Below the pieces are notes generated by a model that was given only the letters and a program-made list of their open reading frames with translations, searched no databases and was not told the DNA's origin. DNA of 64,000 bases. Origin: an uncultured Chthonomonadaceae bacterium. GTDB taxonomy: Bacteria; Armatimonadota; Chthonomonadetes; Chthonomonadales; Chthonomonadaceae. Position numbers and translations under genes: made by a program. Positions 9,201 through 30,504 of the stretch are shown in pieces. Position 1 is the first letter of the stretch, and every line of letters starts with the position of its first letter. The DNA is taken from positions 384,001-448,000 of the forward strand of contig CAWFQB010000002.1 of assembly GCA_963817895.1 (NCBI GenBank), written 5' to 3'.

Positions 9201-11771
9201 CATGCCTGGCTGCGTCCTTTAGAAACCACGGAAGCCTATTTTCGAGTCGCATACCAATCCGGCGCGCAGATGGGGGACTTTTTCCATGCGGGTTGCGGGT
9301 GCAGCGGATTGGCGCAACACGCGCTTATGCAGGGCGCAGACTTGAATTCCGTGTTGGCGGAGTGTGAGCGCGGCATGGACTTTTTGGAACGGGTTCAGAA
9401 TCGGGAAAACCTCGGCACGCTGCTGGCGGTTCGGCAGGCGGTACGGTGTCTGCGGGGGGAAACCCACGCTCCCGACTCGTTTGCCGATGCGACCTTCGAC
9501 GAAGCCGCCTATGTCGAAGAGCTGAAAGGGTACGGCTCACCACATTTCGCGCACTATTACCATGTCAACAAGCTGCAAACGCTCGTCTTGTGGCGCGAAC
9601 ATGACGCGGCGTTGAACGTGGCGCGGGCTTCGTCCGCCTATTTGAAATCGTCCATCGGGATGCAGCATGCTGTGGAACACCATTTTTACGCGGGACTGCT
9701 TTATGCGGAATTAATCGCTCTGCGCCGCCCCGGCCCGCGCCGTCGCTGGCTGCAGACTCTGCGCGCCACAATCCGGCGGTTCCGGCAGTGGGCGCGAAAC
9801 TGCCCCGAAAATTTTCTGCATCGCGCTCTGCTGCTGGAAGCGGAACTGGCGCAAGTCACGGGACAGGATACAATCGCCGGGACGCGCTACGACCAGGCGA
9901 TTGAAGCCGCCGCGCAGCGCGGGTTTGCCCACCACGAGGCGCTTGCCAACGCGCTGTGCGGGCGCTGGCATCGGGCGCGGGGACGGATGCGTAACGCGCG
10001 TTTTTACCTGCGCGAAGCGGCGTATGGCTACCGGCGCTGGGGCGCGACCGCGATTGCGGACGCGCTCATCGAGGAGATCGGCGAATGGGTGTCCCGGGAG
10101 CAGAGCAGCGCGGAGGCCGCCGAGTCCACCAGGGCGGCGAGTGGCTCGACGCGCCACGACGCGCTAAATCTGGACATGGATACAGTGGTGAAAGCGGCGC
10201 AGGCGATTGCCAGCGAAGTGAAATTGTCTGAACTGCTGGCGCGGCTGCTGCATCTGGTCATGGAAAACGCGGGGGCAACGCGCGGTATTTTGCTCCTCCC
10301 GCGCGGCGGAGATTATGTGGCGCAGGCCGAGGGGAACGGCGCGGACATTCAGGTTAAATCCGGCTTGCCGCTTGCCGAGCATCCCGCTCTGGCGCGGTCA
10401 GTCGTTAATTATGTCGCGCGTTCGCGTGAAACCACGATTGTCAATCGTATGGGGCAGGACGCCCGATTTGCCGCCGACGCGTATTTACAGGCTGCCAGAC
10501 CGCGTTCCGTGTTGTGCGCCCCGCTCCTCAATCGCGGCGTTTTAAGCGGCATCCTCTATCTGGAAAACGGGTTGATTGAAGACGCTTTTACCGCTTCGCG
10601 CATCCAACTGCTGCAACTGCTTTCCGCGCAATTCGCTATTTCCATCGAAAACGCGCTGGCGTATGAAGTGCTGGAACAAAAGGTACAGGAGCGCACAGCG
10701 CAACTGGAAGCCCGCAACGCCCTGATACAGCAGATTTTCGGACGCTACAACACGCCGGAAGTTGTGGAGCGACTGCTGGAAGACCCCGGGGGGCTGAAAA
10801 TGGGCGGCGAAAAGCGCGAAGTGACCGCGCTAATTGCCGACCTGCGTGGGTTTGCCGCCTGCGCGGAGAGTCTCGCGCCCGACCAGGTGGTAACGCTGAT
10901 TAACAATTTTCTGCGGGTAATGACCGAAATCATTATTGCGCGCGGGGGAACAGTCAACGGACTTACGGGCGACGGCATGCTGGTGATATTCGGCGCTCCC
11001 CTCTCCTGTCCCGACCATGCCAATCGCGCGGTCAGGTGCGGCCTGGCGATGCAGCTTGCTATGGCGCAGGTAAATGAGTTCAATGCCGCGAATGGCCTGT
11101 CCCAGGTGCAAATGGGCATCGGCATCAGCACGGGCGAAGTGGTTGCGGGCAATATCGGCTCCCTGCAGCGCGCGTCTTACACGGTCATGGGAACCGCCGT
11201 CAATCTGGCCTCGCGTATTGAATCCGTAACTACAGGCGGACAGATTTTTATTTCCGAAGCCACGCTGACGCAGGCAGGCCCGGATGTAGAGATCGGCGCG
11301 CGGCTGGAAATCGAGGCCAAAGGCTTCCGTGGCAAAATTGCCATCTACGATACGCGCGGGGTCGCGGGCAGGGACAGCCTGCGCTTACCCGAAGAGACAT
11401 CCGAACTTATTCAGTTACCACACCCCATTGCCATTCGCTATACGCCCCTCAAAGACAAAAGCATGAGCGGCGAATCACAGGCGGGACGTATTACCTGGCT
11501 GTCCGAAGTCGAAGCGCATATCAGCGCGCCCAATCCGCCCCCGCCACTGACCGATGTGGCCGTCCGGCTGGCGCGGGAGGATGGGAGCGCGATAGACGCC
11601 CTGGCGTATGCTAAAGTGACAGCCGACGCCGCGCGAGAGGGAGCCGATTTTGTGTGCCGGTTCACCTCCGTGGAAACGGAAGCGCGCGATTTTTTGAATC
11701 TTGCCGTCATGCCATGCGCCCTCGTGAAAAATATAGAGGTAATAAAGGAGGAATTGACAACACAAAAGTGA
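6261..11771 (+). CDS. Multidomain Ser/Thr kinase - AAA (P-loop) - helical repeat - GAF - class III adenylate/guanylate cyclase - PilZ-like C-terminus; frameshifts near 6390 and 6960-7000
   Basis: VYRA..VVIK, HRDVTASN, IDFDIAS, GTLAYIAPEQTGR; GYSGVGKS, FLDDLQWID, GNPFF; GAF (SVLCAPLL..GILYLEN); cyclase ADLRGF, GDG, GIGISTGEVVAGNIGS, VNLASRIES. Start (CTG 6261) uncertain. Confidence 0.85.
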
Positions 11772-11845
11772 ATAGAAGCATCGTAACTCATATCTTCAAA
11801 AACTACCCGCCGCAATACGCCGCGCTGTTCGCTGAAAGGGACTAC

Positions 11846-13696
11846 ATGAGCTATCTCGATGTACCGCGAATTCACATTGCGGGCCGGTTTTTTACCGACC
11901 CATCTTCCATTAACAATGACCCTGCCCATTATGACCCGAACTGCGAGCGCCCGTCACCCTGGCAAATGCCCAAAGGCAAGCACTACTTCAAACTCGTTGA
12001 CTGCGCTGTCCGCTCGGTACTGAACGATGTGGGCGCGTCTCCAACCGATGACCCGCTGATCGGAGCGCCGTTTCTAAGCACCGATTTGTTTGTTACGCCG
12101 CCCATGTTCCAGGAGAACGCGCCCTCTTCCGCAGCGAAAATGATTGATCTGGATGTGTACCAGCAGGGCGTATCCACGATTTACGGCCTACAGGTGCAGA
12201 TTGCTGTCAGCGAGACGGTTTCGCTCATCGGAAATGTACTGCCATCTCCGTCCCTGAACAGCTACACGTTCAGCCGCGTCCTGCCCACGCGCGGCTGGAA
12301 CGACGATTCGCAGCAGGCGAGCTACGGCAACGACATCAACGCCTGCGGCAATTTCCAAACTTGTATTCGCGTCCCCATTGCGAACTGGCCGGTAAATGCC
12401 TCGCCCGTCCTCGACCTTCTGCGCGCCAGAACCATTACCGAAAATGGCGACGTTCTGCTGGCCCTCAAATTTACCCTCGATGCTTTTAATAACGTGTATT
12501 TCGGCTGCCCTTCCGAAAATTGCTATCATGGCCGCTTGACGGGCTGTATCGGCCCGATGAAGGCCGGCGACCCGCTACAGGCTCCCGGCGCGCGCTGGCT
12601 GGCGGCCCGCGCGCTGCCTGCCAACGCGCCCTGGTTCGTGCCGACGTTCAATTCTGCGCCGTTTCAGGTGGACGCCACGCGCCGCAAACTGGTGGTGGAC
12701 CTTGCCAACAGCCTGTGCCTCGAAACCATCGGCGGCCCTCCGGTTGATCTGGGCGTGTTAAGCGCCGTGATGGGAGGGGAAGACGGACCGGTTACATTGG
12801 GCGCGCTGCAGTACGATCAATTCGGCTATGAAAATAATGCCGGAATCGCGGAACTGGATTTGACCGACGCGCAGGTACAGCAATTGGCGCATTCGCCGCT
12901 CGCTCTGGTCACCTCGCGGCAGGACATCGGCCCGCAGGCCGTGCTGTCGGAAGACCCTTCCGGGCTGTGGTGGGCGGTGGATACCCGTATTCTGCGCATG
13001 AGCAGCGAAGCGAACAGCGCAGCCAGTGTCGCGACGATTCGGGTGCATGCCACGCAATGGGGCTTGCCCGCTCCCCATGTCGCGCTGCAGGCGCAGGTGG
13101 TTCCCGTTCAGGGCACTACCCCGGGCGCGACCGTGCCGCCCACCTATGCGGGGGATACCTTCAATGCTGAGGGCGCGTTGACGGCCTCCATCACGCCGAC
13201 GGATTATGATGGTTACGCGCAATTGACCCTCAATGTCATCAAAGACCCTGGCTCCCGTACTCCCTGGCTGGACAGCCAACTCTACTTCGTCAATATTTAC
13301 AGGGACGCCCCGCAGCAGGGACAGGTTCAGGAACAGCAATTGTCGTGCCAGGTATGGGCGCGATACCCGGTCAATCCCAATCCGACCTGGGATGTGATTG
13401 CCGCCATGATGGCTGCGTATAACCGGTTATACCCGGCCATGAGGGAGATGATTGATCTGACGGATGAACACTCGTTCCGCGTATTCGCCTTCAATCCGCC
13501 CTGGTCTGTGCCGGACGGCATCACCTTCAACGTGCCAGCCGACTATAGCGTGGATGGTATCAACAGCGGCGCAATCCCGTTTTTCCTGACCCGCGATGGG
13601 GATGACCCGCGCTTTATGCCGCCCACTCGCGACCTGTCGCCCAATAAAATTCAGACCATTCTCAACTACATCAAGAACAATCCGCCGCAGTCGTAA
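11846..13696 (+). CDS. VioB/RebD/StaD N-terminal-region-like protein without a C-terminal ferritin-like domain
   Basis: MSYLDVPRIHIAGRFFTDPSSINND and C-terminal YNRLYPAM...RFMPPTRDLSPNK resemble motifs recalled for VioB-like proteins. Confidence 0.6.
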   Translation: MSYLDVPRIHIAGRFFTDPSSINNDPAHYDPNCERPSPWQMPKGKHYFKLVDCAVRSVLNDVGASPTDDPLIGAPFLSTDLFVTPPMFQENAPSSAAKMIDLDVYQQGVSTIYGLQVQIAVSETVSLIGNVLPSPSLNSYTFSRVLPTRGWNDDSQQASYGNDINACGNFQTCIRVPIANWPVNASPVLDLLRARTITENGDVLLALKFTLDAFNNVYFGCPSENCYHGRLTGCIGPMKAGDPLQAPGARWLAARALPANAPWFVPTFNSAPFQVDATRRKLVVDLANSLCLETIGGPPVDLGVLSAVMGGEDGPVTLGALQYDQFGYENNAGIAELDLTDAQVQQLAHSPLALVTSRQDIGPQAVLSEDPSGLWWAVDTRILRMSSEANSAASVATIRVHATQWGLPAPHVALQAQVVPVQGTTPGATVPPTYAGDTFNAEGALTASITPTDYDGYAQLTLNVIKDPGSRTPWLDSQLYFVNIYRDAPQQGQVQEQQLSCQVWARYPVNPNPTWDVIAAMMAAYNRLYPAMREMIDLTDEHSFRVFAFNPPWSVPDGITFNVPADYSVDGINSGAIPFFLTRDGDDPRFMPPTRDLSPNKIQTILNYIKNNPPQS

Positions 13697-13734
13697 GAGG
13701 GCTGTCGGCTCGAATTTTTACGAGGATACATACT

Positions 13735-15285
13735 ATGCGCGGTTTCAAAACCTCTGTTGCCCTTGCTCTGCTGATTGTGTGTCTGTCAGGAATAGCGGCG
13801 CGTGGCCGGGCGCAAAACGATCCCAATAGCGACCCCAACATCGTTCCCAATGCGCTGCCGTATACGCTGACGTTTACTCCGATGACGTATGCGCCGAGTA
13901 CGCGGTATGCGGCTCTGCCCGCGCTGCACTCTTATCGCTCGGTTGTCACAAAAGACGGGAAGTGGCTGGTTCTGGGCGGACGCTACAATGCCGGTCTGCA
14001 CACGTTCAAAACGCCGGTGGCGGGCGTGAACAACTTTTCCAGCCCCAATAAATGGCTGTGGGTGATTGACCCGGAAAAGGGCGTGTTGGGCAAGTTCGAC
14101 GTGACGACCCTGCCGCCCGGCATGGCGCCGCTGTTTCAGGCGACCAATCAGGAGTCCTACTACGACCGCGCTAACGACCGGTTGTACGTGGTGGGCGGCT
14201 ACGGTCTGAATGGACAGGGCAGCTACGTCACGTTTAGCGCCATGATGCGCTTTTCGCCGACACTGGTGATTCAGGAGATACTCAGCGCGGACAGCAATGC
14301 CGTGAAGTCGCAGAAAATTCAGGGGATGGTGCAGCAGTTGCAGGACGACAATCTTGCGGTTACAGGCGGCGAGATGTTTCGGCTGAACGGCGTGTTTTAC
14401 CTCACATTCGGGCAAAAAGCGTCAGGCAAATATGATGCGTTCGGTGGTTCGCTCAACCAACAATACACCCAACAGGTGCGCTACTTCACCCTCAACCCCA
14501 ACGCGCCCGGCCTGTCCTTTTTGACGTTGCCGGTGGGAACGGCGCAAAAGCCCGAGTATCATCGGCGCGATGGCAACATCATGTCCACCATTGACCCGCA
14601 AACCGGAAACCAGCAGATCGGCGTGTTTGGCGGCGTATTTCCCGATGGCGTTATCGGAGCGTTCCCCAATCCCATCTACATTTCGCAGGATCGCTCCATC
14701 GTCATAGACACGGCGAACCAGTATTTCAGCGCGTATAACTGCCCCGTGATCGTGGCCTATGACCCGACAGGCAAGCGGACGTACCATACGTTCTTCGGCG
14801 GTATCAGCCACTACTTCTACAGCGAAACCGCCGCGCAGCAGGTGGTCTACAAGCTGGCGACGGGACAGGGGCGCAACGATGGCCTGCCGTTTATTCGCGA
14901 CATCAGCACGTTTATCCGTAAGGGCGACGGCACATGCGAAGAGTGGATTCTGCCGTCTCCTGTTCCCGGCAGCCTGATGCAGGGAACCGGCGCGGCGTTC
15001 ATGCCGGTCGCCTCGCTGATTGGCGGCGCGCTGGATGAGGAGGGCATTGTGTGGCTGAACAAACTAGCGCCGGAAAGCAGCCAGACTATCGGCTATATCT
15101 ACGGCGGCATCACCGCCCTCAACCCGTTCCCGACGATTCCCAACACGGGTACATCGGGAAGCAATACGGTCTACAAAGTGACGCTGAACATGTCGCCTTC
15201 CGGCGCGATTCCGGTGTCCAAAGCGACAGCGGCAGTGTCTAACGGCACGCCGCCTTTTACCCCGCCCGCTGCGGCGAACCGGTAA
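13735..15285 (+). CDS. Secreted protein, probable Kelch-like beta-propeller
   Basis: Signal peptide (ALALLIVCLSGIAARGRA); repeated hydrophobic-GG motifs (WLVLGGR, LYVVGGY, LAVTGGE, IGVFGG, TFFGG, YIYGG). Confidence 0.6.
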   Translation: MRGFKTSVALALLIVCLSGIAARGRAQNDPNSDPNIVPNALPYTLTFTPMTYAPSTRYAALPALHSYRSVVTKDGKWLVLGGRYNAGLHTFKTPVAGVNNFSSPNKWLWVIDPEKGVLGKFDVTTLPPGMAPLFQATNQESYYDRANDRLYVVGGYGLNGQGSYVTFSAMMRFSPTLVIQEILSADSNAVKSQKIQGMVQQLQDDNLAVTGGEMFRLNGVFYLTFGQKASGKYDAFGGSLNQQYTQQVRYFTLNPNAPGLSFLTLPVGTAQKPEYHRRDGNIMSTIDPQTGNQQIGVFGGVFPDGVIGAFPNPIYISQDRSIVIDTANQYFSAYNCPVIVAYDPTGKRTYHTFFGGISHYFYSETAAQQVVYKLATGQGRNDGLPFIRDISTFIRKGDGTCEEWILPSPVPGSLMQGTGAAFMPVASLIGGALDEEGIVWLNKLAPESSQTIGYIYGGITALNPFPTIPNTGTSGSNTVYKVTLNMSPSGAIPVSKATAAVSNGTPPFTPPAAANR

Positions 15286-15537: not shown

Positions 15538-15822
15538 CGGAGTTCCTCTGCGTGGCTAAAATAAGGGAGTCACATCTGCTACGAAAGTCTTTTGGTGGTT
15601 TCTTTGTACGCAGAAATAGTCGTCATCTTGTGAAGCGAGGTTTCATAAACGCCATACTGATGTAGTAACCCAAGTTGCTACCTTAAACCGTGTTTGAGAT
15701 AGCAACGTACCAAAAGTAGCAATATTCGCCAGAATCTTCCAGATGAGAATTAAGGTAGCAAATTGAATTAGTAGAATATATTAAAAACTATAACTTAGTT
15801 CTTGTTGTTGACGATGAATCTA

Positions 15823-17625
15823 CTAAAAACTGGTCGCATCAAATCGGCGTGAAGTCGTTTTTAGAAGCAAGGTGACAACTATATAGAGTGTCACGGCGAT
15901 TACAACAGTTATCCCACCAATTGCATAGATGCCTGGATTAAATCCTGACTTCATCTTGCCATTGATATACAAGCTTAACATTTGATTTGAACCGCTTAAG
16001 AATGATGACCTTACATAGTCATTAACCGAAAGCAAAATACCGATAATAAATGCACTGACGATGCCAGGCCATGTCAAACTAAAGAGAACTCGACGGCAGA
16101 TAAAGACTCGTGAGGCTCCCATTTCTCGTGCAACTGCAAACAATGTAGGATTCACACTACTATTCACAGCAAAAATAACTGCAACGCAAAAAGGTAACGC
16201 CCAAGCTATATGTGATGCAGCCACAAGTATAAGTGAGGCACCTTTCATGCCGCAGGATTTGTAAATCTTTTGTATTGCTTGAACGTAAGAATTTGCTGGC
16301 AGGAGAACTAATATACTTAGTCCACAAATTACAACAAAGCGCCACAACTGGTGCCACCATACCAATCCAATAATAAATGCCAAGGTTGCACAGAGAAACC
16401 CGACCGGCAACGCTATTTCAAGTGAGTTAATCCATGCTTGTCTTAACGTATCTCCTTCAAATACCTTCCAATACCAATGTAAACTCAACTCAAACTTTGA
16501 ACTGTTAATTACTCTATATGGCGCAATTGAAAGTATTAAGATCGAGCATACCGGTGAGAGTAGGAATAGCATGATTGCCGCCACTATTCCCCCTTCTAGG
16601 AGCGAAGAGGTAACTTGCCTGTAGTGTTGATGCACTGCCCTTATGGAAGGAATAAAAGTCTCAACATCATTCATTTTTCCAAGTTCGTTAGGTTGGTGTT
16701 CTGAAAGGGTGTTGCTGTCTGGGATAGACCTGCCTACATGGCGGAATAATAAACATCCCAACGCACCGCTGACCAGAAAACAAGCTATAAGTAACGAACT
16801 GAGAGCATGTACCGCAGCAAATTTGTTAGCGCTTTGCAGACCATTAATGAAAGCACTCAGACTTCTGTCTTGCTTTTCAAGTAGGGAAGGCTCCACAGAG
16901 TTTCCGAAAGCTAACCAGAAGGCGCAGAACCATCCAAAAAGAATACCGGGTGCAGCTACAGGTAGAACAATGCGGACGAGTCTCGTACCAGTATTGGCAC
17001 CTATTTCATCGCAGGCTATCCAAAAGCTGTTGCGGCTACTGGGTAAAGCAAGAACCACAGGAAAAACAACGAACGGCAGGGTGGCTGCTATTAAAGTGAT
17101 TACAATAGAAGTCCGAGTGTAAATCAGCCATCGAAGTGGGGTAGCATGTGGGATGGTTGAAGTCAAGAATGAGTTTACAAATCCATTAAGATTGAGAAGA
17201 TGCAACCATCCATATGAACGTGATGTGGCATTTACCAGAAATGGAACATTGAGTGTCATTAACAATGTCCACCGCCAGATTGCTGATTTGCGACGAACAA
17301 TAAAATCTGCAAGTGCTATGCCAATTATAATATCAATTGTGGCTACAATTACGCCCCGAAACACGAGTTCTGATAAAGCTGTGACATACTGCGGTTGAAG
17401 AATTTCCTTATACCCTTGCGTCGAACCCCATCCTACCTGCCGCAACCCATCCCAAGTTACCAAACTCTCGTGAAGGACTACAAACATGGGTATCAGACAC
17501 AAAAATAGAAGGCAGAGGCATGGAATAATAGCCATCGCACTATGCCAAAAGTTTCGGTAGCTATCTTTCATCTCACTCCTCAGAATAAACTCATGTGCCT
17601 GATCTACTATATGCAGATCAGGCAC
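15823..17625 (-). CDS. Fused double ABC permease (PotB+PotC-like)
   Basis: Two TM modules, each with a degenerate EAA loop (IACDEIGAN..RIVLP; AVAREMGAS..RVLFSLTWPG); ~600 aa. Confidence 0.8.
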   Translation of the reverse strand: MPDLHIVDQAHEFILRSEMKDSYRNFWHSAMAIIPCLCLLFLCLIPMFVVLHESLVTWDGLRQVGWGSTQGYKEILQPQYVTALSELVFRGVIVATIDIIIGIALADFIVRRKSAIWRWTLLMTLNVPFLVNATSRSYGWLHLLNLNGFVNSFLTSTIPHATPLRWLIYTRTSIVITLIAATLPFVVFPVVLALPSSRNSFWIACDEIGANTGTRLVRIVLPVAAPGILFGWFCAFWLAFGNSVEPSLLEKQDRSLSAFINGLQSANKFAAVHALSSLLIACFLVSGALGCLLFRHVGRSIPDSNTLSEHQPNELGKMNDVETFIPSIRAVHQHYRQVTSSLLEGGIVAAIMLFLLSPVCSILILSIAPYRVINSSKFELSLHWYWKVFEGDTLRQAWINSLEIALPVGFLCATLAFIIGLVWWHQLWRFVVICGLSILVLLPANSYVQAIQKIYKSCGMKGASLILVAASHIAWALPFCVAVIFAVNSSVNPTLFAVAREMGASRVFICRRVLFSLTWPGIVSAFIIGILLSVNDYVRSSFLSGSNQMLSLYINGKMKSGFNPGIYAIGGITVVIAVTLYIVVTLLLKTTSRRFDATSF

Positions 17626-17637
17626 ACACTTGTGACG

Positions 17638-18849
17638 TCAAGCACTACGTAGCTTGCTCCACCACTCCTCATACAACTTATACTCCTTCGGCCGAGAGTT
17701 CTGCCAAAATGCCTGTCCACCTTGCTTCAGGAACTTGTCATGAACATGCTGTGCAGTCGCAGCTATGACTTTCGAGTCGAATTCTGATGGATTCTTGCCG
17801 GCGTAATCCACAGCCTTGTCCGTTGGGACAACATAGCCCCTGAGTTTAGACAATGCACACCCATAATACCCCCCCAACTCCCAGTTGGCAAACTGGTGCG
17901 CCAAATCTATTAGGTCACGAGACTTTGCGCCCGTGTGCAAAATCAGATCGTTGGACCAGCCCTCATACCCTTCTTTGGGTACAGCATACTGAGCATTCAC
18001 TCCGGCTTTCTGAGCAGCAAGAACAATAGGCTCCCACCCGGTCATTACCCACACCTCTTGGCTCTTTATGAGCTGTAGGCCGTCTTCCCATCCGTTCCAA
18101 AGACGGCGAAATTGACCGTCCTTTTTTTTCTTGATTAGAAACTCCATAACCACTCCGAGTTCATCGGGAGTAAGGTTACCAGGATCTTGAATTTTCGAGA
18201 TGGCGTTTTGTTTGAGATAGATCGCCGTGAAAATAGCACTGTTGATCCAAGCATCCTCCATTGAGGTCTTGCCCTTTAGTTTAGGATCAAATACAGCGGC
18301 ATAACTGTCAATTTTACCTACCTTATCGGGAAGGTAAATCATGGAGTCGGCATTGATAACGATTGGTAAACCGTATTGTTTTCCGTCGTATTTGGCATGG
18401 CGAATGTCTTGAGCCCAAGGCCAGACCGCCTGCCAGTTGGGAATTTTAGTTAAATCCCATGGAAGAATTTTGCCTGCTTGTGCCAGTTCTGCTTCAGCCC
18501 CACCTTGTAGACCGCCCAAGTCAAAGTCGTCAGCTACTGTGCCTGAGACCATCTGAGTAACAACTGGTCCTGCATCGTTGTTGTTGTCCTTGAACGTTAG
18601 TTTAACGTGCAAGTCCTGTTGTGCTTGTGCCCACGACTCAAGGTTGAGGGTGCCAGTACCGTACAACTTGAGTTCACGGATGCTGGTTACAAGCTTATCA
18701 GATGTAGCCGTACCAGAGTGGTTGTCGCCTCCACGACAACCACTCATTACTGCTGCAAGGCCGATGCCTGAATAGCCGAGTCGGCGAAGTAGGTCACGTC
18801 TTGATATATTGGAGTCGTAACCATGGTGCTGATCTTTGGGTAAGGTCAT
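17638..18849 (-). CDS. ABC substrate-binding lipoprotein, PotD/PotF-like, Tat-exported
   Basis: Twin-Arg SRRDLL plus lipobox MSGC; DLTKIPNW, DGKQYGLP, FDPKLKGK, YAVPKEG. Confidence 0.8.
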   Translation of the reverse strand: MTLPKDQHHGYDSNISRRDLLRRLGYSGIGLAAVMSGCRGGDNHSGTATSDKLVTSIRELKLYGTGTLNLESWAQAQQDLHVKLTFKDNNNDAGPVVTQMVSGTVADDFDLGGLQGGAEAELAQAGKILPWDLTKIPNWQAVWPWAQDIRHAKYDGKQYGLPIVINADSMIYLPDKVGKIDSYAAVFDPKLKGKTSMEDAWINSAIFTAIYLKQNAISKIQDPGNLTPDELGVVMEFLIKKKKDGQFRRLWNGWEDGLQLIKSQEVWVMTGWEPIVLAAQKAGVNAQYAVPKEGYEGWSNDLILHTGAKSRDLIDLAHQFANWELGGYYGCALSKLRGYVVPTDKAVDYAGKNPSEFDSKVIAATAQHVHDKFLKQGGQAFWQNSRPKEYKLYEEWWSKLRSA

Positions 18850-18883
18850 CTTAATCCTCCTAAAAACTTTCTAAGTAGACCGA

Positions 18884-18932
18884 GGGCTAAAGTTCGTAGA
18901 TTTTACATCTCGAAAAACTACGAACTTAGTCC
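18884..18932. other. Intergenic stem-loop between the ATPase and SBP genes
   Basis: AAGTTCGTAG (18890-18899) pairs with CTACGAACTT (18918-18927). Confidence 0.5.
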
Positions 18933-18982
18933 AATGCCCGCCTTAGTTCAACTCAATCCTTGTTCAATCCCTACATTGTTTA

Positions 18983-20131
18983 TCATGTCTGTAGTGGTAC
19001 CGCATAAGCATCAGACAAAGAGAATGAGAATGATATGGGGTCGCCGGGATTGTACTCTACTTCCATCACACGTCGCGGCACATCACAAATGACTAAGTGC
19101 TTATCAATTTGTCCAAGCATGGTAATGTGGATGCGCTTATAAAATCCGCGGAACTGCACAGTACGCACAATTCCACTAAGGTTGATGTAATTATTATTGT
19201 TATTACGTAAACAAATATCCTCTGCCCTAACTAAAATGGCACATTGTTTGTCATATATATGGTTATATTCTTGAGGCAGATGCAACACAACGTTTAAATG
19301 GGCAGATGTGAATTTGCCACTAAGGTCGCATTCACCCTCCAATATAGTATGACCGTCCAAAATTCTTGCGGCTTCCACACATGGCGGGCGTAATACTATA
19401 TCCTCTGTGTTGCCGTAAGCAATTAATTTTCCATGATTTATTATTGCTAAATGACTACATAGCGACATAGCGAAGTCATGATCATGTGTAACGGTAAGAA
19501 TTGTGGGACGGTTATTCCCATTGGAAACTTCTGTTAGCAACAGAGCCAAGTTGCTTTTCTGCTCTGCATCTAGTGACGCTGTTGGCTCATCCAAAAGTAG
19601 AATGGATGGTTGCATAATAAATGCTCTAGCTAAAGCAGTACGTTGTTTCTCTCCTCCACTAATACTAACTGGTTTATGAAATCTTTGATCCCATATACCG
19701 AAACGCTTCAAGTATTCATTCACGCGGGCTTCAGGAGTTGCTTTTATTTCAGTTGGAATGGCATTTTGACGTTTTAATATTTTGAAAAGTTTCAAGAACA
19801 CATCTCTGATGCTCTTCCTGGAAACAGTCAACGGGAACTCTACATTTTTAAAAACAGTGAGATTGGGAAACAGAGCGTGATCCTGAAATACAGTTATGAC
19901 GCTACGTTCGCCAGGTACATGCTGAGTTATATCACAACTGTCAAGTAAAATATTACCATTAGATACTGGAAGGTGTCCTGCTACAATACTCAGCAGTGAG
20001 GTTTTACCTGCACCACTAGGCCCTATAATGCCAACATGTGCACCTTTTTCAACTTTCAAATTTATATCGTCAAGCTGAAATTTATTGTAACCATAGCTAT
20101 AAGACACCTTCCTAATTTCAAGGTAAGCCAC
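18983..20131 (-). CDS. ABC ATPase, PotA-like, with C-terminal TOBE region
   Basis: Walker A GPSGAGKT, VFQDHALFPNLTV, signature ISGGEKQRTALARA, LLLDEP, VTHD. Confidence 0.9.
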   Translation of the reverse strand: MAYLEIRKVSYSYGYNKFQLDDINLKVEKGAHVGIIGPSGAGKTSLLSIVAGHLPVSNGNILLDSCDITQHVPGERSVITVFQDHALFPNLTVFKNVEFPLTVSRKSIRDVFLKLFKILKRQNAIPTEIKATPEARVNEYLKRFGIWDQRFHKPVSISGGEKQRTALARAFIMQPSILLLDEPTASLDAEQKSNLALLLTEVSNGNNRPTILTVTHDHDFAMSLCSHLAIINHGKLIAYGNTEDIVLRPPCVEAARILDGHTILEGECDLSGKFTSAHLNVVLHLPQEYNHIYDKQCAILVRAEDICLRNNNNNYINLSGIVRTVQFRGFYKRIHITMLGQIDKHLVICDVPRRVMEVEYNPGDPISFSFSLSDAYAVPLQT

Positions 20132-20768
20132 TAGTATTCTCCATTTTTGGATCTACAATGATGTATGGTAATCGTTGCTTCGCTACAGGTAGCAGTTCAA
20201 GGTACTTTCCTTCATAGATTGCAACAATTATATCCATCTCTGCGGCAGGCCCAAATTCTAAATCAACTATGTTCTGGTCTGCAATAAAGAGCTTCATTGC
20301 AATTTCTTCAATGATGTAAGGTGCAAGACGTACCATCATGGGATGTCGTTTGCTCGAAATTCCATGCTGGCGTAGTAAGGGCTGGAGATTCCGAAATATC
20401 TGGTTGTGACAATGACTCGCGAACTCTCGCGAATGTGTATACACATTATTTACTGTCTCCAGATAATATATGAAGTTAGGTAAATTTGCATAATTAGTCC
20501 ACGAATTTATTTTTATATTGGGAAGATTTGAAGCCATCAATGCTGAACTTAAATCTTTGCAACGCTTCTGAACGTGCGCTTCAGCAGAAGCGATTGAAAG
20601 GTGGCAAAGATGTGACTGATTGGTTATTTCTGGTTTGTCAAGAAGACAAATAATTAGCTCATCGCACATACTCTGTGTATGCCGTGCAACATAACTCAAA
20701 TAATGTGGTGTCATGACGTACGCGCCTAGACTAACTAAGATTATACCTTCTTTTTTATTATTTATCAT
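20118..20768 (-). CDS. Divergent tRNA-dependent cyclodipeptide synthase (CDPS)-fold protein
   Basis: 216 aa. LVS13LG (catalytic Ser position), LLD44, SIASAEAHVQKRCKDL, INSW, EFASHC, Y151IIEE155 (YxxxE) and PYIIVDP are colinear with AlbC motifs as recalled. Confidence 0.7.
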   Translation of the reverse strand: MINNKKEGIILVSLGAYVMTPHYLSYVARHTQSMCDELIICLLDKPEITNQSHLCHLSIASAEAHVQKRCKDLSSALMASNLPNIKINSWTNYANLPNFIYYLETVNNVYTHSREFASHCHNQIFRNLQPLLRQHGISSKRHPMMVRLAPYIIEEIAMKLFIADQNIVDLEFGPAAEMDIIVAIYEGKYLELLPVAKQRLPYIIVDPKMENTSGLP

Positions 20769-22587
20769 CGATATGCCTCGAGTAGAATGTGTTTATTGTT
20801 GCGTACTTTTGCCAGAATCTGTGTGGACGTCCGTCATTTTTATAGTTTTTCCATTGTTGTGGATCCGATATGCTGACCGCGCCTTTATCGAACAAATTCC
20901 TTTTAGCAATTTGGCTGAGACCAGCCGCATTTGCTATATTTGCATCAAAGCAGGATTGAATCTTATCCAAGCTCCTTACATTGTGGAAGTTGGCCCCACT
21001 TAAGTCTGCAAACTCAAAATTTGCGCCTCGTAATGATGTAAAACTGAAGTTAACATAACGCGCTGATATAAAACTGAGGTTCGCGTCATCAAGAAGGGCA
21101 TTTTGAAAGTTCGCACCATCAAGATTGGCTCCCTTAAAATCAGAAAACTGTAGATGGGCCATCTGAAGGAAAGCATTCTGAAAAGAGGCATTAAGAAAGA
21201 AAGCTCCAACACCAAGTGGATGTTCATCACTGTCCGCATGAACATTACTCAAATCGGCATCATCAAAGCAGGCGTTAAAGAACTTAGCCCCGTCGATGCG
21301 TGAGCCACGTAATCTTGTCATGCGTAAGTCACAGTTACGAAAATCCGCGTTTGTGAGAATAGTATCAACTAAATAAGCTTCGACAAGAGAAGAGTGTTCA
21401 AAGATAGCATTTGTTAAGCGTGCGTTGGAGAAATCAGCATCATCCAGAATAGACAACGCAAATGTTGAATTTTGAAGATTTGCTCCCTTAAATAATCCTC
21501 CCTCAACATAGCTTCGTTGAAAACTGGCACCAACTAAATTGTAGTATTCAAGATTTAGTTTTGCGAAGCGCGTCCTTTCAAACAATTGTGCAGGATTATC
21601 ATACTTATTGCGCACAGATTGTAATGGCTTTGACCACACCCAAGCCAAGCCATTTCGAGACGTTTCACTACGTTTAGGTTGACCTACTCCATACCAACTT
21701 TCGGGACGTATGGTAGTTAGCATGTCTACAACCGCCTCGGACTTATCAGGTGATAGCATCGATGCTACATTTTCAGTACGGTTCTTTTTTTCATGTAATG
21801 GGCGCATACTCCTAGCTTGTAGTTCTTCAAGAGTAACAGGAACTCCACGCTTCATAAACGTTTGTACGAGATGTTTAACTTCATCTGCGTAAAGGGCATG
21901 AGTGTGCATACGTCCGCTCAATACTTCACGAACTCCATCTACTACATTGATGCGAACGGAGTCAGGTACTTGACGTGTCATCATAACTGGAACGCGACTA
22001 AGAGAAGCGATGCGTCGTTGCTCGGTTGTACTTCCAATGTCATCTGCCAGACGGGTAAAAGAGCGTTCAGCATTATCTATCATTGAAATACGATTTTGGA
22101 ATTGGTAAGTTAAAATAGCAACCAATATGCCGAAGGCACTGCCAACTGTGAGTAGTGCCTTGCCGAGCATTTGATAACCCTCCGGGCTACTAAAGCTCTT
22201 CCAAAAGTGTTGCCACCAACCTGCAAGCATACTTTTCTTCATGCGACACCACATACTGCGAAGAAGCACTGGTACATTGCTCTTTATTGAAACCCACACA
22301 TCTCCCATCTTCTTTCTACACTTTGCAAGTCCCTTTATGTGTGTAGATTTAAGCCGTATGATACTTGGCATAACTATTTTATTCATCTTGTTTTGATGAG
22401 GAGTTTGAGCAATTCTCTCATCTTGTATGTTCTGAGTTGCAGGTAGTTCAACCCGAATTACATTATTCGACGTTGTTTCAGGAATGACTACTTGAGATGA
22501 GACATGAACAGTATGAGTGTTGTTAGAGTTCCCATGTACCTCATCTCTATGTTGTGCTTCTACAGTATTTTTTTGTGAGTTTTCCAT
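20758..22587 (-). CDS. Membrane-anchored pentapeptide-repeat protein
   Basis: Low-complexity N-terminus, TM helix (ALLTVGSAFGILVAILTY), helical FTRLADDIGS..RRIASL segment, long A-[DN]-[LF]-x-x repeat tract; GGGGAG SD before ATG 22587. Confidence 0.85.
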   Translation of the reverse strand: MENSQKNTVEAQHRDEVHGNSNNTHTVHVSSQVVIPETTSNNVIRVELPATQNIQDERIAQTPHQNKMNKIVMPSIIRLKSTHIKGLAKCRKKMGDVWVSIKSNVPVLLRSMWCRMKKSMLAGWWQHFWKSFSSPEGYQMLGKALLTVGSAFGILVAILTYQFQNRISMIDNAERSFTRLADDIGSTTEQRRIASLSRVPVMMTRQVPDSVRINVVDGVREVLSGRMHTHALYADEVKHLVQTFMKRGVPVTLEELQARSMRPLHEKKNRTENVASMLSPDKSEAVVDMLTTIRPESWYGVGQPKRSETSRNGLAWVWSKPLQSVRNKYDNPAQLFERTRFAKLNLEYYNLVGASFQRSYVEGGLFKGANLQNSTFALSILDDADFSNARLTNAIFEHSSLVEAYLVDTILTNADFRNCDLRMTRLRGSRIDGAKFFNACFDDADLSNVHADSDEHPLGVGAFFLNASFQNAFLQMAHLQFSDFKGANLDGANFQNALLDDANLSFISARYVNFSFTSLRGANFEFADLSGANFHNVRSLDKIQSCFDANIANAAGLSQIAKRNLFDKGAVSISDPQQWKNYKNDGRPHRFWQKYATINTFYSRHIDDK

Positions 22588-22753
22588 TCTAAACTCCCCA
22601 ATATTTAATCGCACTACAAACTCGAATGTTGTGACCTGCCTTCTATTGCTTCTACGCTCATAAAGTCCTAAGTAATTTTAACATGATATTCCTTAAAAAT
22701 CAATAGGTTTCCAATTTTTTTATCCGGTGGTGTATTTTGATCAACGTTAAACA

Positions 22754-23338
22754 CTAAAATATGCCATCACCAACCACTGTAATTATCCTCGCCAGCGACA
22801 TGACCGTGCCAAGACACCAGCGAACCGCGTCTATCAGGCGATGCCGCGTGATGTTCTTTTGTTCGATGAAATCGCCGTAGAATTGGTTCTGGTCAACGTA
22901 ACTGCCGAACTCGATCAGGGCGTCGGCAAACACAGGCGGGACGCCCACGCCGAGCGCGGTTAAAATGCGCGCGAACAGGTCGAGCGTGTTGGCGATGATT
23001 TTGCGCTCGTCGGCGGACTGCGATTGCAGCAGAAACAGTGTTTGCGAGATGTCAATCAGATAGACATTGCGCAGCGAGAGTTCCTTAAATTCCGCCTGAA
23101 TGTTCGCCAGTTTCAGAGCCGTTTGCGCAAGGCTGATGTCCGCGAAGAGAACAACCTGTCCATCAGCGATCAGCGGCTGCATTTGCCCGTCCTGCTCAAT
23201 GAGAAAGGTGAAAAAGTCGGGCCGGTCGCGCCTGCCGTCCAGCCGCAGGCCGGTCAAAAAGAAGGTTGCGGTGGACTCAGAATTGGCTTCGTTACCAGCT
23301 TCAAAGGGTAATGGGGTTGTATTTTCATCGGACTGCAT
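22754..23338 (-). CDS. Hypothetical protein
   Basis: ~194-aa ORF from ATG 23338 with host-like codon usage. Confidence 0.6.
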   Translation of the reverse strand: MQSDENTTPLPFEAGNEANSESTATFFLTGLRLDGRRDRPDFFTFLIEQDGQMQPLIADGQVVLFADISLAQTALKLANIQAEFKELSLRNVYLIDISQTLFLLQSQSADERKIIANTLDLFARILTALGVGVPPVFADALIEFGSYVDQNQFYGDFIEQKNITRHRLIDAVRWCLGTVMSLARIITVVGDGIF

Positions 23339-27285: not shown

Positions 27286-29451
27286 TTGAAGACGAGAGCA
27301 GAACACGCAAAGCCCGGTTCTTTCGATCAGGCTGTGACCACCCAACCTAAAAACCACGCGATGGTTACTTCTTCCCCTTCCGAAGTCTCCTCCCGGCCCC
27401 GGACACTCTCCTCAGTTTCCGGCAATGTGGCTGTCTCCCATGCTCTGACGACGGAAACCGTCTCGCTGGAAGCCGTTCGCCACGCCATTACGGGCGCGCA
27501 GCACTATCTGCTGGATCGGCAGGAGCCGGAGGGCTACTGGGTCGCCGAACTGGAAGGCGATACCATCCTCGAAAGCGAGTATATTCTGCTCCTGCAGTTT
27601 CTGGATCGCCGCGATCCGGAGAAATTTCGCAAACTCGCCAAATACATTCGCAGCAAGCAGCATCCGGAAGGCTACTGGTCTATCTATCCCGGCGGCCCGC
27701 CGGATGTCAGCGCGTCCGTGAAAGCCTATTTCGCCTGCAAACTGGCCGGGCATAAGGAGAACGAGCCGTTTATGCGCCGCGCCCGCAACGCCATTCTCGA
27801 AGAGGGCGGCGTGACGCAGTGCAATACCTTCACCAAACTCTACCTCTCCATGTTCGGGCAGTACGACTGGCGCGGCGTTCCGACCATTCCGCCGGAAGCC
27901 GTGCTGATGCCCAAGTGGTTCTACTTCAATATCTACAACATGTCCTCGTGGTCGCGGGCGATTCTGGTTCCGCTTGCCGTGATGAACGCCACGCGCCCGC
28001 AGCGTCCCATTCCCGATAACGCGGGCATACCGGAACTGTTCGTGGGCGGGCGCGACCGCAAGCGGATGCGTGCTGTCGTGGGACCGCAAGCCGCTCACCT
28101 GGCGCAACGTGTTCCTGGTCATGGACAAAATCCTCAAGCTCTACGATGCCAGCCCCGTCAAGCCGTTCCGCAAACTGGCGCTGAAGCGGTCACTGGAATG
28201 GCTGCTGGAGCGCGAAGAGAACAGCGGCGGACTGGGCGCGATTTTCCCCGCCATGACGCACGCGATCATGGCCTACAAGTGCATGGGCTATGCCGGACAA
28301 CCATTGGGCGATCTGCAAAGAACTGGCGGAACTGGCCGCGTTCGAGATCGAAGAAGACGACACGATCCGCCTGCAGCCCTGCGTGTCGCCGATCTGGGAT
28401 ACGGCCATCGTCATCAATTCGCTGGTCGACAGCGGCTATGCCGCCGACAGCGAAGCGGTGCAGCAGGCGGCGGAATGGCTGCTGTCCAAGCAGACCACGC
28501 GCAAGGGCGACTGGGCGGTGAAAGTGCCCAATGTCGAGCCGGGCGGCTGGTACTTCGAGATGGAAAACGAGTACTATCCGGATGTGGACGACACCATCAT
28601 GGTGCTGATGGGCCTGTACAAGGCCTACTGTCCGAATGGCGAGCACTGGACGGAAGCGCCCGCCGCATGTCCGCGAAGTCGATGCGCAAGGGGCTGGACT
28701 GGGTCTTCGCCATGCAGAACAGGGATGGCGGCTGGGGCAGTTTCGACAAAGACAACAACAAGACGCTGTTCCAGTACGTGCCCTATGCCGACCACAACGC
28801 GATGCTCGATCCCTCCTCCGCCGACATCACCGCCCGCACGCTGGAAATGTGTCCTACTTCAGCATCGGAAACGCATCCGAATGGGGCCGCGATGTGCAAC
28901 GCGCCCTGGACTATCTCTACCGCGAGCAGGAAGCGGACGGCTCCTGGTTCGGCCGCTGGGGCGTGAACTATCTGTACGGGACGTGGCAGGTGCTGCGCGG
29001 GCTGGCGCGGTATCGGCGAGGATATGCAGTCCGAGCGGATTCAGCGCGCCGTGCGCTGGCTGCACTCCGTGCAGAACGAGGATGGCGGCTGGGGCGAAAC
29101 CTGCCAGTCCTACGATCCCGAACATCCGAAAGCCAACGGGCCAAGCACGCCGTCGCAAACCGCCTGGGCGCTGATGGGCCTGTTCAATGCGGGCGATCTG
29201 GACAGCCGCGTTCGTGCAGCGCGGGCTGGACTACCTGCTGAACAATCAGGACGAGCGACGGAACCTGGGAAGAGGAGTGGTTCACGGGAACCGGCTTTCC
29301 CCGCGTGTTCTACCTGCGCTACCACTACTACCGGCACTATTTCCCGCTCTGGGCGCTGGCGCAGTACCATACGTTTGTTACCGGCGAACCCTGCGACGGC
29401 CCCGCCAACAGCAAAGCGCATGGGGGCAGGTTCGCCAATTTGGAAGTGTAG
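27286..29451 (+). CDS. shc: Squalene-hopene cyclase; multiple frameshifts
   Basis: QEPEGYWVAELEGD, QPCVSPIWDT, YYPDVDDT (DXDD), QW motifs QNRDGGW and QEADGSWFGRWGVNY, TGTGFPRVFYLRYH; ends TAG 29449-29451. Confidence 0.92.
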
Positions 29452-29454
29452 CGC

Positions 29455-30504
29455 GTGAAAGACAAAATCGCTAAAGTCGCGTCTAAAATGCAGTGGAACC
29501 TGCTGGCCGCCGCGAATAATTCACGCCCGCCGCAGATTGAAATTGTGCATGAGCGCCAGGCGGACGCGCCGTTTCCCGGCTTGGAATATGTGTATAGGTG
29601 CGTGGAACCGGCGTGTATCGAGCCGGAATTCGGATACGTGATTACCGGGCGCGGCCAGTTGCTGGAAGCGTCTTTGCAGCCCAACGATACCGACAATTTT
29701 CCGCCCTGGCGACAGGGCCTCCCCTCCCCATCCGCCTTTCGCAAAGCCATGCTTCCGTCTGCCGCGAACGTGGTGTCCGTCCCCGCCGCCATCTCCCTGC
29801 GCCACTGGTGGGAGTGGAATTACTTTCATTTCTACAATGATGTGCTGGGTAAACTGCATCTGCTGGAAAAAGCGGGCGTGTCTGCTTCTATCCCTCTGGT
29901 GTTGGGAAAATACGCGAATGAACTCCCGTTCGTGAAGCAGATTATTTCGCGGGGCGAATTGGGAAAGCGGCAGTGGATTATTCAGGAGGATAATTATATT
30001 CGGGCGGACACGATCTACTATTGCCGCAGCAAAGAGACGAAGCGGGAGCGGTTCGGAACCATTCTTCAAATGGCGGACGCGCCCCTCCCGAACCCCGGTT
30101 CACCAAACCGCGTATTTCTGACCCGCAGCCCGAAAGCAAAGCGGCATGTCGCTAATGCCGGGGAGGTAATGGAGGTTGCGGGCAAATACGGTTTTCGCGT
30201 GGTGGATACGGACGGTATGAGTATCCAAAAGCAGATGGAACTGTTTGCCGACACGCGCTATCTGATAATGACGCATGGCGCGGGATTTACCAATATTCTG
30301 TACCGGCAGGACGCGCCCCTGTCCATTCTGGAACTTCACGCCAGTAATTATCTGACTCGCGACCCGCGAGACCTGGCGGAAACGTTCGGACACCCCTATG
30401 ACGAGCTTGGCGGGCCGGCGAATGGCGCAAATCCTCAACATGCCAACTATCACATAGATGCAGCTGAATTGGAGCGCAGAATCCAACAGATTTTGACAGG
30501 GTAA
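29455..30504 (+). CDS. Glycosyltransferase family 61 (DUF563)-like protein
   Basis: NYFHFYND, RVFLTR..RHVAN, QMELFADT..IMTHGAGFTNILY. Confidence 0.8.
   Translation: MKDKIAKVASKMQWNLLAAANNSRPPQIEIVHERQADAPFPGLEYVYRCVEPACIEPEFGYVITGRGQLLEASLQPNDTDNFPPWRQGLPSPSAFRKAMLPSAANVVSVPAAISLRHWWEWNYFHFYNDVLGKLHLLEKAGVSASIPLVLGKYANELPFVKQIISRGELGKRQWIIQEDNYIRADTIYYCRSKETKRERFGTILQMADAPLPNPGSPNRVFLTRSPKAKRHVANAGEVMEVAGKYGFRVVDTDGMSIQKQMELFADTRYLIMTHGAGFTNILYRQDAPLSILELHASNYLTRDPRDLAETFGHPYDELGGPANGANPQHANYHIDAAELERRIQQILTG

Follow-up and report, generated by a model that had tools for sequence, protein, structure and literature searches.

A cyclodipeptide synthase-fold protein lacking the cyclisation tyrosine, encoded in an apparently undescribed mobile enzyme–importer cassette

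In active cyclodipeptide synthases (CDPSs) Tyr202 is strictly conserved, and its exchange for Phe causes the dipeptidyl-enzyme to pile up (PMC5935735). In the XYP subfamily of these enzymes the X at position 40 is non-conserved (PMC5935735), and replacement of Tyr178 by Phe was tolerated in one XYP enzyme (PMC7613923). Here we analyse a gene for a 216-aa protein that has the CDPS fold and no tyrosine at the Tyr202 site. The gene lies in a stretch of 64,000 nucleotides (the window; positions 384,001 to 448,000 of contig CAWFQB010000002.1, assembly GCA_963817895.1) from an uncultured Chthonomonadaceae bacterium, within a minus-strand operon that also encodes an ATP-binding cassette (ABC) importer:

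20118..20768, minus strand: Tyr-less CDPS-fold protein, 216 aa; S13, Y151 and E155 present, G173 at the Tyr202 site (profile, model and alignment)

The open reading frame (ORF) is real and the CDPS fold of its product is settled. Both had been proposed in a preliminary description made from the letters alone, and the ORF and all motifs quoted there were found at these positions. A single-sequence Pfam scan of the query returned zero family matches, its match to TIGR04539 (E 1.6e-4, 21.3 bits) stayed under the cut-off of 45, and a sequence search of the PDB gave two matches only, both CDPSs (9gun, E 0.089; 5ocd, E 0.12). A search of 1.84 billion representatives at E ≤ 0.001 retrieved 111 relatives, and a family profile built from 58 stand-alone sequences reached the solved CDPSs (9gun, 2.5e-22; 5ocd, 1.2e-13; AlbC, 1.5e-7). 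Against PF16715, the profile suggested earlier as a check, the query alone has no match. The AlphaFold 2 model of the protein, with a predicted local distance difference test (pLDDT) value of 96.4 and a predicted template modelling (pTM) score of 0.92, was closest to 9gun among solved structures (Z 21.1, root-mean-square deviation 2.5, 196 residues aligned; VIA, whole length). Structural ranks 1–10 were all CDPSs (Z 21.1 to 13.9), followed by tyrosyl- and tryptophanyl-tRNA synthetases, and Foldseek gave the same outcome. A Rossmann domain of the CDPS type, resembling class-Ic aminoacyl-tRNA synthetases, is accordingly present in both model and profile, as the preliminary description had anticipated.

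Existing family models touch these proteins at their margins. Weak matches to TIGR04539 were found for 48 of the 58 profile members, and the PF16715 cut-off was passed by 6 of 100 scanned relatives, the outliers P0107 and P0108 among them. An Atlas feature search returned clusters with PF16715 in 10–41% of their members, at a recognition value below the threshold of the tool, and serves as a lead only. Two relatives, P0055 and P0107, already carry a CDPS annotation at JGI; single family members may therefore sit unremarked in CDPS lists. A gene split by an assembly frameshift was considered and is unlikely, since all of the nine closest relatives stand alone, at 209–228 aa, and one related locus (L005) has the same 14-bp overlap with the following gene.

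The catalytic residues were followed through an alignment of 100 family domains, obtained from the 111 relatives by dropping those below 180 aa, a kinase fusion (P0112) and the outliers P0107 and P0108. Ser13 is present in 90 of the 92 domains that cover the position, position 151 is Tyr in 85/99 and Phe in 14/99, and Glu155 is kept in 99/100, so that the earlier statement that the catalytic Ser, Tyr and Glu are retained extends to the family, with Tyr or Phe in 99/99. Superposition of the whole domain predicts that S13, Y151 and E155 share one pocket. Conversely, the query reads EFGP opposite EIYP of 9gun and EVYP of 5ocd, which places Gly173 at Tyr202 and Pro174 at Pro203. The Tyr202-equivalent column holds Ala, Gly, Leu, Ser or Met, and Tyr in 0/100 domains. 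The loss reported for the query is thereby confirmed, and the distinct CDPS subfamily postulated from it is supported. A Tyr stands one position before the site in 23/100 domains, in a column of variable hydrophobic residues where the query has Phe, and Pro174 is found in 54/99. The conserved Gly35 is likewise replaced, by Leu11 in the query, a change that the preliminary description does not mention, and the Asn40 equivalent is Ala16, mostly Ser in the family. Residues invariant in the family are D44, E47, N50, Q123, N127, P130 and E177; Glu47, in 93/96 domains, is new.

The NYH signature is thus absent from the query, which has Ala16 for Asn40, Pro174 for His203 and a neutral α4 helix. The XYP residues are in place at position 40, where any residue is allowed, and at 203 (Pro174), whereas the tyrosine that both subfamilies have at 202 is missing (Gly173). 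Since the tests on Tyr202 and on curated scores both came out negative, the protein is not to be filed under either subfamily, though it is most XYP-like. The earlier wording that it fits neither signature was right about the tyrosine and too strict otherwise: Ala16 is no mismatch to XYP because X is non-conserved, and Pro174 fits XYP. On alignment evidence the family classes as an XYP-derived offshoot in which the tyrosine is the sole broken signature residue. In the family tree, from which the weakly scoring G1228 was left out, the Tyr-less members are grouped with P0107 (local support 0.98, single-outgroup root), and ATPase-fused and free forms are interspersed. Three further, weak candidates (G1369, G1498 and a Kitasatospora match that was found with P0108) retain a Tyr in the Tyr202 position or adjacent to it; the stretches of them that were examined held no cassette genes, and they were set aside as outgroups. 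Long proteins with a C-terminal CDPS-like domain also occur (L022:2342-3880, 512 aa; L019, an open frame of ~700 aa), and the domain of the former carries a Tyr-His motif.

The CDPS-like protein is a fixed, often fused, partner of one particular ABC importer; the preliminary description mentions neither the cassette nor the fusion. On the minus strand of the window the operon order is pentapeptide-repeat membrane protein, CDPS-like gene, ATPase, substrate-binding protein (SBP) and fused permease, all five genes lying in an island of low GC content, also at third codon positions (GC3):

20758..22614, minus strand: pentapeptide-repeat protein with a single hydrophobic stretch around residue 150; 11-bp overlap with the start of the CDPS-like gene
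18983..20131, minus strand: PotA-like ABC ATPase carrying a TOBE domain, with intact Walker A/B, Q-loop, signature and H-loop; 14-bp overlap with the stop of the CDPS-like gene
17638..18849, minus strand: SBP (SBP_bac_8); by sequence, a leader with twin Arg and a Cys
15823..17625, minus strand: fused PotB/PotC-like double permease, 600 aa (domain scans)
15700..22900, no strand: low-GC island holding the five genes; GC3 0.34–0.50 against 0.64–0.74 in flanking genes, genome GC 0.568

Among the 111 relatives, 43 are at least 300 aa long and 41 of these are N-terminal fusions of a CDPS-like domain to an ABC ATPase; the other two are a DUF1232 fusion (P0106) and the Ser/Thr kinase fusion P0112, whose domain is degenerate. 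Nine family loci were read, the window counted. The ATPase is in the operon at seven, locus L003 being cut by an insertion sequence (IS) and L007 ending at a contig edge. The SBP is present at five, three loci (L005–L007) ending before its site, and an SBP search of the L003 genome gave no match. A pentapeptide homolog occurs at five (the window, L003 as a remnant, L006, L007 and L021). Locus L015, found through its SBP alone, carries a CDPS-like::ATPase fusion, and L021, found by the family profile, is bounded by a tRNA-Glu gene and an IS, with genes for ATPase, SBP, DUF1232, two permeases and the pentapeptide protein in between. As indirect support for the link to the importer, 10 of 28 family clusters (10/14 of those with a contig of at least 7 kb; P0107 and P0108 left out) have a longest contig of exactly the same length as that of an SBP match among the best 120 of 646, judged by eye. 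Across four cassettes compared, the SBP is the best-conserved gene (46–54% identity, against 31–35% for the ATPase and 22–30% for the permeases), and cassettes of this kind also occur in Acidobacteriota and Bacteroidota.

The cassette is mobile, its low-GC islands adjoining a tRNA gene or IS elements, and the family is rare and patchily distributed. No member was found in 400 other genomes of the same phylum, SBP-first searches gave 1/401 in each of two other phylum samples, and a class sample held 2 true members among 251. The family search of plasmids found no member, and 22 plasmid records with the SBP included none with a CDPS-like gene; the SBP search of phages and viral contigs found none.

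Several features of these loci are recorded here for completeness. The ATPase at 18983-20131 has an insertion of ~20 aa between Q-loop and signature, and the Bacteroidota-type ATPases (L004, L008) are without the TOBE tail. Every NCBIfam score of the importer proteins was below the curated cut-off, PADLOC 2023 returned for the cassette proteins generic ATPase matches and one marginal match only, and a complex prediction for the CDPS-like protein with its own ATPase scored 0.00, giving no verdict, and was used as evidence neither way. An inverted repeat with 24-nt arms (83%) lies at window:15663-15773, just 3' of the permease at the island edge; scans of the window for promoters, terminators and repeats gave nothing clearly above chance, and no tRNA genes were found in it. 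In L021 the DUF1232 gene is at 4800-5591, and in L003 a sequence resembling a tRNA 3'-half (7390-7445, not called by ARAGORN) lies just 5' of the pentapeptide remnant, before the IS that cuts the cassette. In place of the pentapeptide gene L015 has a 516-aa protein with an N-terminal ribbon-helix-helix (6556-8106), for which an Atlas search gave no usable match; divergent CitMHS-like and ABC exporter genes lie upstream. Elsewhere in the window, 11654-15285 holds two large ORFs, of 680 aa without a Pfam match and of 516 aa with weak kelch matches; upstream of these is a 1588-aa protein that we take, from its domains, to be ATPase/GAF/cyclase-like. What is presumably a squalene-hopene cyclase-like gene, spread over several frames at 27286-29458, suggests indel errors or decay.

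Substrate pockets were assigned by sequence register in BcmA numbering (PMC11580168). The predicted P1 residues are I9, L11, C41, L43, W90, M158, K159 and E171. At two P1 positions occupied by Gly in the Leu-specific BcmA the family has Leu in 57 and Phe in 19 of 92 domains, and Leu in 81 of 96, respectively; the sequence suggests a shallow P1, for Gly or Ala. A characterised enzyme with Gly in P1 is also bulky at position 35 (PMC5816076, Table 2). The predicted P2 residues are Q123, R126, N127, P130, A175, E177 and M178, several of which are among the most invariant of the family (Q123 in 90/100, N127 in 92/100, P130 in 98/100, E177 in 77/98), and the Q..N pattern is common to the Tyr-bearing 9gun and P0108. 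The P2 helix (residues 113–134) is strongly basic, with a mean of 4.8 basic and 0.8 acidic residues over the 100 domains, a composition compatible with tRNA contact, and use of tRNA is plausible.

The cargo of the importer was approached through the SBP, which has a PotD-class fold with just 13–20% identity to PotD/PotF-type structures and YdcS ranked first. Its profile reaches YdcS and Lmo0810 only, not the PotD/PotF type at 1e-5, and its family scores are 17 bits against 636 for the PotF model and 51 against 725 for YdcS; by score and by closeness the protein thus falls outside the polyamine-binding family. All four annotated loci opened for SBP relatives at 52–55% identity (L009–L012, on Aminobacter, Leisingera, Rhizobium and Pararhizobium plasmids) adjoin hydantoinase A/B, in the order MalT-type regulator, hydantoinase B, hydantoinase A, ATPase, SBP and permeases, one adding an M20 amidohydrolase; the family profile found no CDPS-like gene in them. 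Their hydantoinase is a candidate lactamase or diketopiperazine hydrolase, and an oxoprolinase annotation may conceal a lactamase or a hydrolase of cyclic dipeptides (PMC6061476). At 32–34% SBP identity, the transporter operon of a Microvirga locus (L025:7980-12580) includes pyroglutamyl peptidase I, and a Halomarina locus (L028:4582-13025) has homologs of both pyroglutamyl peptidase I and hydantoinase/oxoprolinase A/B. The SBP subfamily of these two loci, usually labelled spermidine/putrescine-binding, is likely a pyroglutamyl-peptide importer family. The theme common to the SBP neighbours is a 5-oxoproline or lactam ring. With the kin of the SBP beside genes for lactam or pyroglutamate cleavage, a lactam or a pyroglutamyl peptide seems the likelier ligand, and not a polyamine. 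In an SBP tree built from the best 120 of 646 matches (117 after a length filter) and six sequences from the loci, a biased set from which no direction of evolution is claimed, 14 CDPS-linked SBPs are spread over all main clades and the four hydantoinase-linked ones fall in one nested clade. The genome of the window has hydantoinase B/A homologs of its own, on other contigs and unlinked to the cassette (G000:C14:478535-480085 and C5:211044-212472), of which the hydantoinase A gene aligns in three pieces.

The best explanation we can offer, put forward tentatively, is tRNA-dependent synthesis of a pyroglutamyl (pGlu) dipeptide that is taken up by the co-encoded importer. Ser13 would be acylated from the aminoacyl-tRNA of a small residue such as Gly or Ala, and a second, polar residue, most simply Gln, would enter the Q/N/E-lined P2 to give the dipeptidyl-enzyme. 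The N-terminal Gln could then close on its own side chain to pyroglutamate, a cyclisation known as spontaneous chemistry. As pyroglutamate formation uses the amine needed for a diketopiperazine, Tyr202 would be dispensable. Water, possibly aided by the invariant Glu47, would release pGlu-Gly or pGlu-Ala. The importer would bind and take up this class of dipeptide, so that the cassette would unite synthase and receptor, perhaps to serve signalling, and the catabolic operons with the same SBP family would consume such molecules. It is possible that this one idea accounts together for the loss of the tyrosine, the invariant polar P2 and the SBP neighbours. As for the transferase with a linear or amine product envisaged in the preliminary description, a product of the linear type is still plausible, while the amine or polyamine acceptor is weakened by the 13–20% identity of the SBP and by its lactam and pyroglutamate neighbours.

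Several points weigh against synthesis of a pGlu dipeptide. The helix corresponding to α4 of AlbC is non-basic in the family (3.5 basic against 3.1 acidic residues), and the catalytic Ser is near the N-terminus (median residue 16). XYP enzymes use long basic β2/β7 strands for tRNA (PMC7566563); the query has a short N-terminus and a weakly basic C-terminal strand. With a Ser so placed there is little room for a basic β2 strand, and tRNA use is therefore not assured. The pockets are assigned by register, and activity, ligand and tRNA binding are all predictions. The pyroglutamyl-peptidase link comes from SBPs just 32–34% identical, and two remoter loci (28–31%) carry short-chain dehydrogenases/reductases, polysaccharide deacetylase and amidase/asparaginase instead. 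The window cassette encodes no exporter gene, and the missing exporter, the ATPase fusion and the pentapeptide protein are left unexplained. Moreover, an import ATPase as fusion partner is no more natural for synthesis than for handling a ligand that comes in, whether by processing or by sensing it.

On the side of processing, the protein could be a CDPS working in reverse: as a serine hydrolase it would open, via acyl-Ser13, the ring of a diketopiperazine or other cyclic amide brought in by the importer, and would occupy the slot of the ATP-dependent lactamases of the sister operons. This is fairly unlikely, although the CDPS-like gene stands directly before the same ATPase–SBP–permease order as hydantoinase B/A do elsewhere, or is fused to the import ATPase. 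The invariant Glu47 could activate the Ser as Asp58 does in ParcuCDPS (PMC7613923), enzymes that hydrolyse diketopiperazines had yet to be identified as of 2013 (PMC3852281), and the suggestion, cited above, that some 'oxoprolinases' are cyclic dipeptide hydrolases points the same way. However, by reversibility the proton relay of the tyrosine should help ring opening too, the sister enzymes consume ATP in acting on amides of this kind, the family cassettes read showed neither a regulator nor a peptidase downstream, and the conserved basic helix suggests nucleic-acid binding. On the side of sensing, uptake may switch the CDPS-fold domain or the domain may regulate the ATPase, with aminoacyl-tRNA consumption or a second messenger as the output of a conflict or stress cassette. 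The patchy distribution, the position of the low-GC islands beside a tRNA gene or IS elements, the faster divergence of ATPase and permeases than of the SBP, and the accessory pentapeptide, DUF1232 and kinase partners would all suit such a role. We nevertheless regard it as unlikely: PADLOC gave no meaningful match, the CDPS-like gene of L021 stands at the operon end far from the ATPase, and the ATPases are 29–40% identical to those of the catabolic operons, so that the divergence may be a property of the transporter family.

The remaining alternatives keep the chemistry closer to that of known enzymes or of the preliminary description. A slow but otherwise ordinary CDPS, making for instance cyclo(Gly-Gln/Glu), could close the ring slowly or via Glu47/Glu177 in place of the tyrosine, its importer binding the diketopiperazine. 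AlbC Y202F keeps ~11% of normal activity (PMC3105412), and loss of Tyr202 is therefore compatible with cyclisation; P2 is inherited from Tyr-bearing relatives, and the TIGR04539 and PF16715 matches described above agree with such an enzyme. Yet Rv2275 Y253F is 200-fold down (PMC3105412), and a Tyr202 site that varies freely among A, G, L, S and M indicates that nothing is selected there, which makes this quite unlikely. Very unlikely is the version of the preliminary description, in which an amine or polyamine, once imported, would receive the aminoacyl group from tRNA. It would draw on the retained catalytic residues of the first half-reaction, on the invariant acids E47 and E177, which could bind an amine, and on a transporter of the PotABCD structural class. 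The SBP speaks against it, being distant from PotD/PotF-type structures and missing them by profile, as do the neighbour genes of its family, which suggest a lactam or pGlu compound as ligand. In a pyroglutamyl ligand the N-terminal amine is not free and could take no aminoacyl group.

In combination, the data describe a new CDPS-fold variant in an apparently undescribed mobile enzyme–importer cassette. No description of a Tyr-less CDPS family was found in a literature search of mostly open-access texts, nor one of a CDPS-fold enzyme fused to an import ATPase, except two unrelated NYH-ABC fusions. At least 100 divergent clusters keep the acylation machinery and drop the tyrosine, a natural experiment on the cyclisation step, and the family is a candidate for new tRNA-dependent chemistry. 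A pGlu-dipeptide synthase, if true, would be a new reaction; a ring-opening hydrolase, if true, would be the long-missing diketopiperazine hydrolase. At its boldest, the proposal makes the mobile cassette the first with a CDPS-fold enzyme whose output is not a diketopiperazine: a synthase that uses tRNA to make pyroglutamyl dipeptides and is physically joined to an ABC receptor-importer of its own, in a new bacterial small-peptide signalling or conflict system whose signal other bacteria and archaea would eat by means of the same SBP family; this we consider somewhat unlikely.

Among known systems, the closest structure and profile match is 9GUN, a putative CDPS of Porphyromonas gingivalis, for which the literature search found no paper on the product. 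It resembles the family in its short N-terminus, the Q..NL on the P2 helix and the E-x-x-P strand; unlike the query, to which it is 18% identical, it keeps Gly35 and Tyr202 (EIYP) and is without Glu47. The XYP CDPSs (Fdum 5OCD, BcmA 9J61, Nbra, Rgry) share with the family the Rossmann CDPS fold, Ser37/Tyr178/Glu182 and Pro203 (54/99 in the family). The family differs from them in the absence of Tyr202 (100/100), the change of Gly/Pro35 to Leu/Phe and an invariant polar P2, and its partner is an importer whereas theirs are tailoring enzymes. The CDPS-ABC fusions of Gondry 2018 likewise join a CDPS domain to a C-terminal ABC-transporter domain; they are, however, two proteins of the Candidate Phyla Radiation (CPR), of NYH type and with unrelated pocket motifs. 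The SBP family of the cassette is shared with the hydantoinase/oxoprolinase and pyroglutamyl-peptidase ABC operons (Aminobacter, Rhizobium, Leisingera, Microvirga and Halomarina plasmids), and four hydantoinase loci have the same ATPase–SBP–permease order; unlike the cassette, the operons have no CDPS-like gene, and the four hydantoinase loci show a MalT-type regulator and a catabolic layout. Finally, PotABCD, PotFGHI and YdcSTUV have an SBP of the same structural class and ATPases and permeases of the same families, with an SBP identity of just 13–20%.

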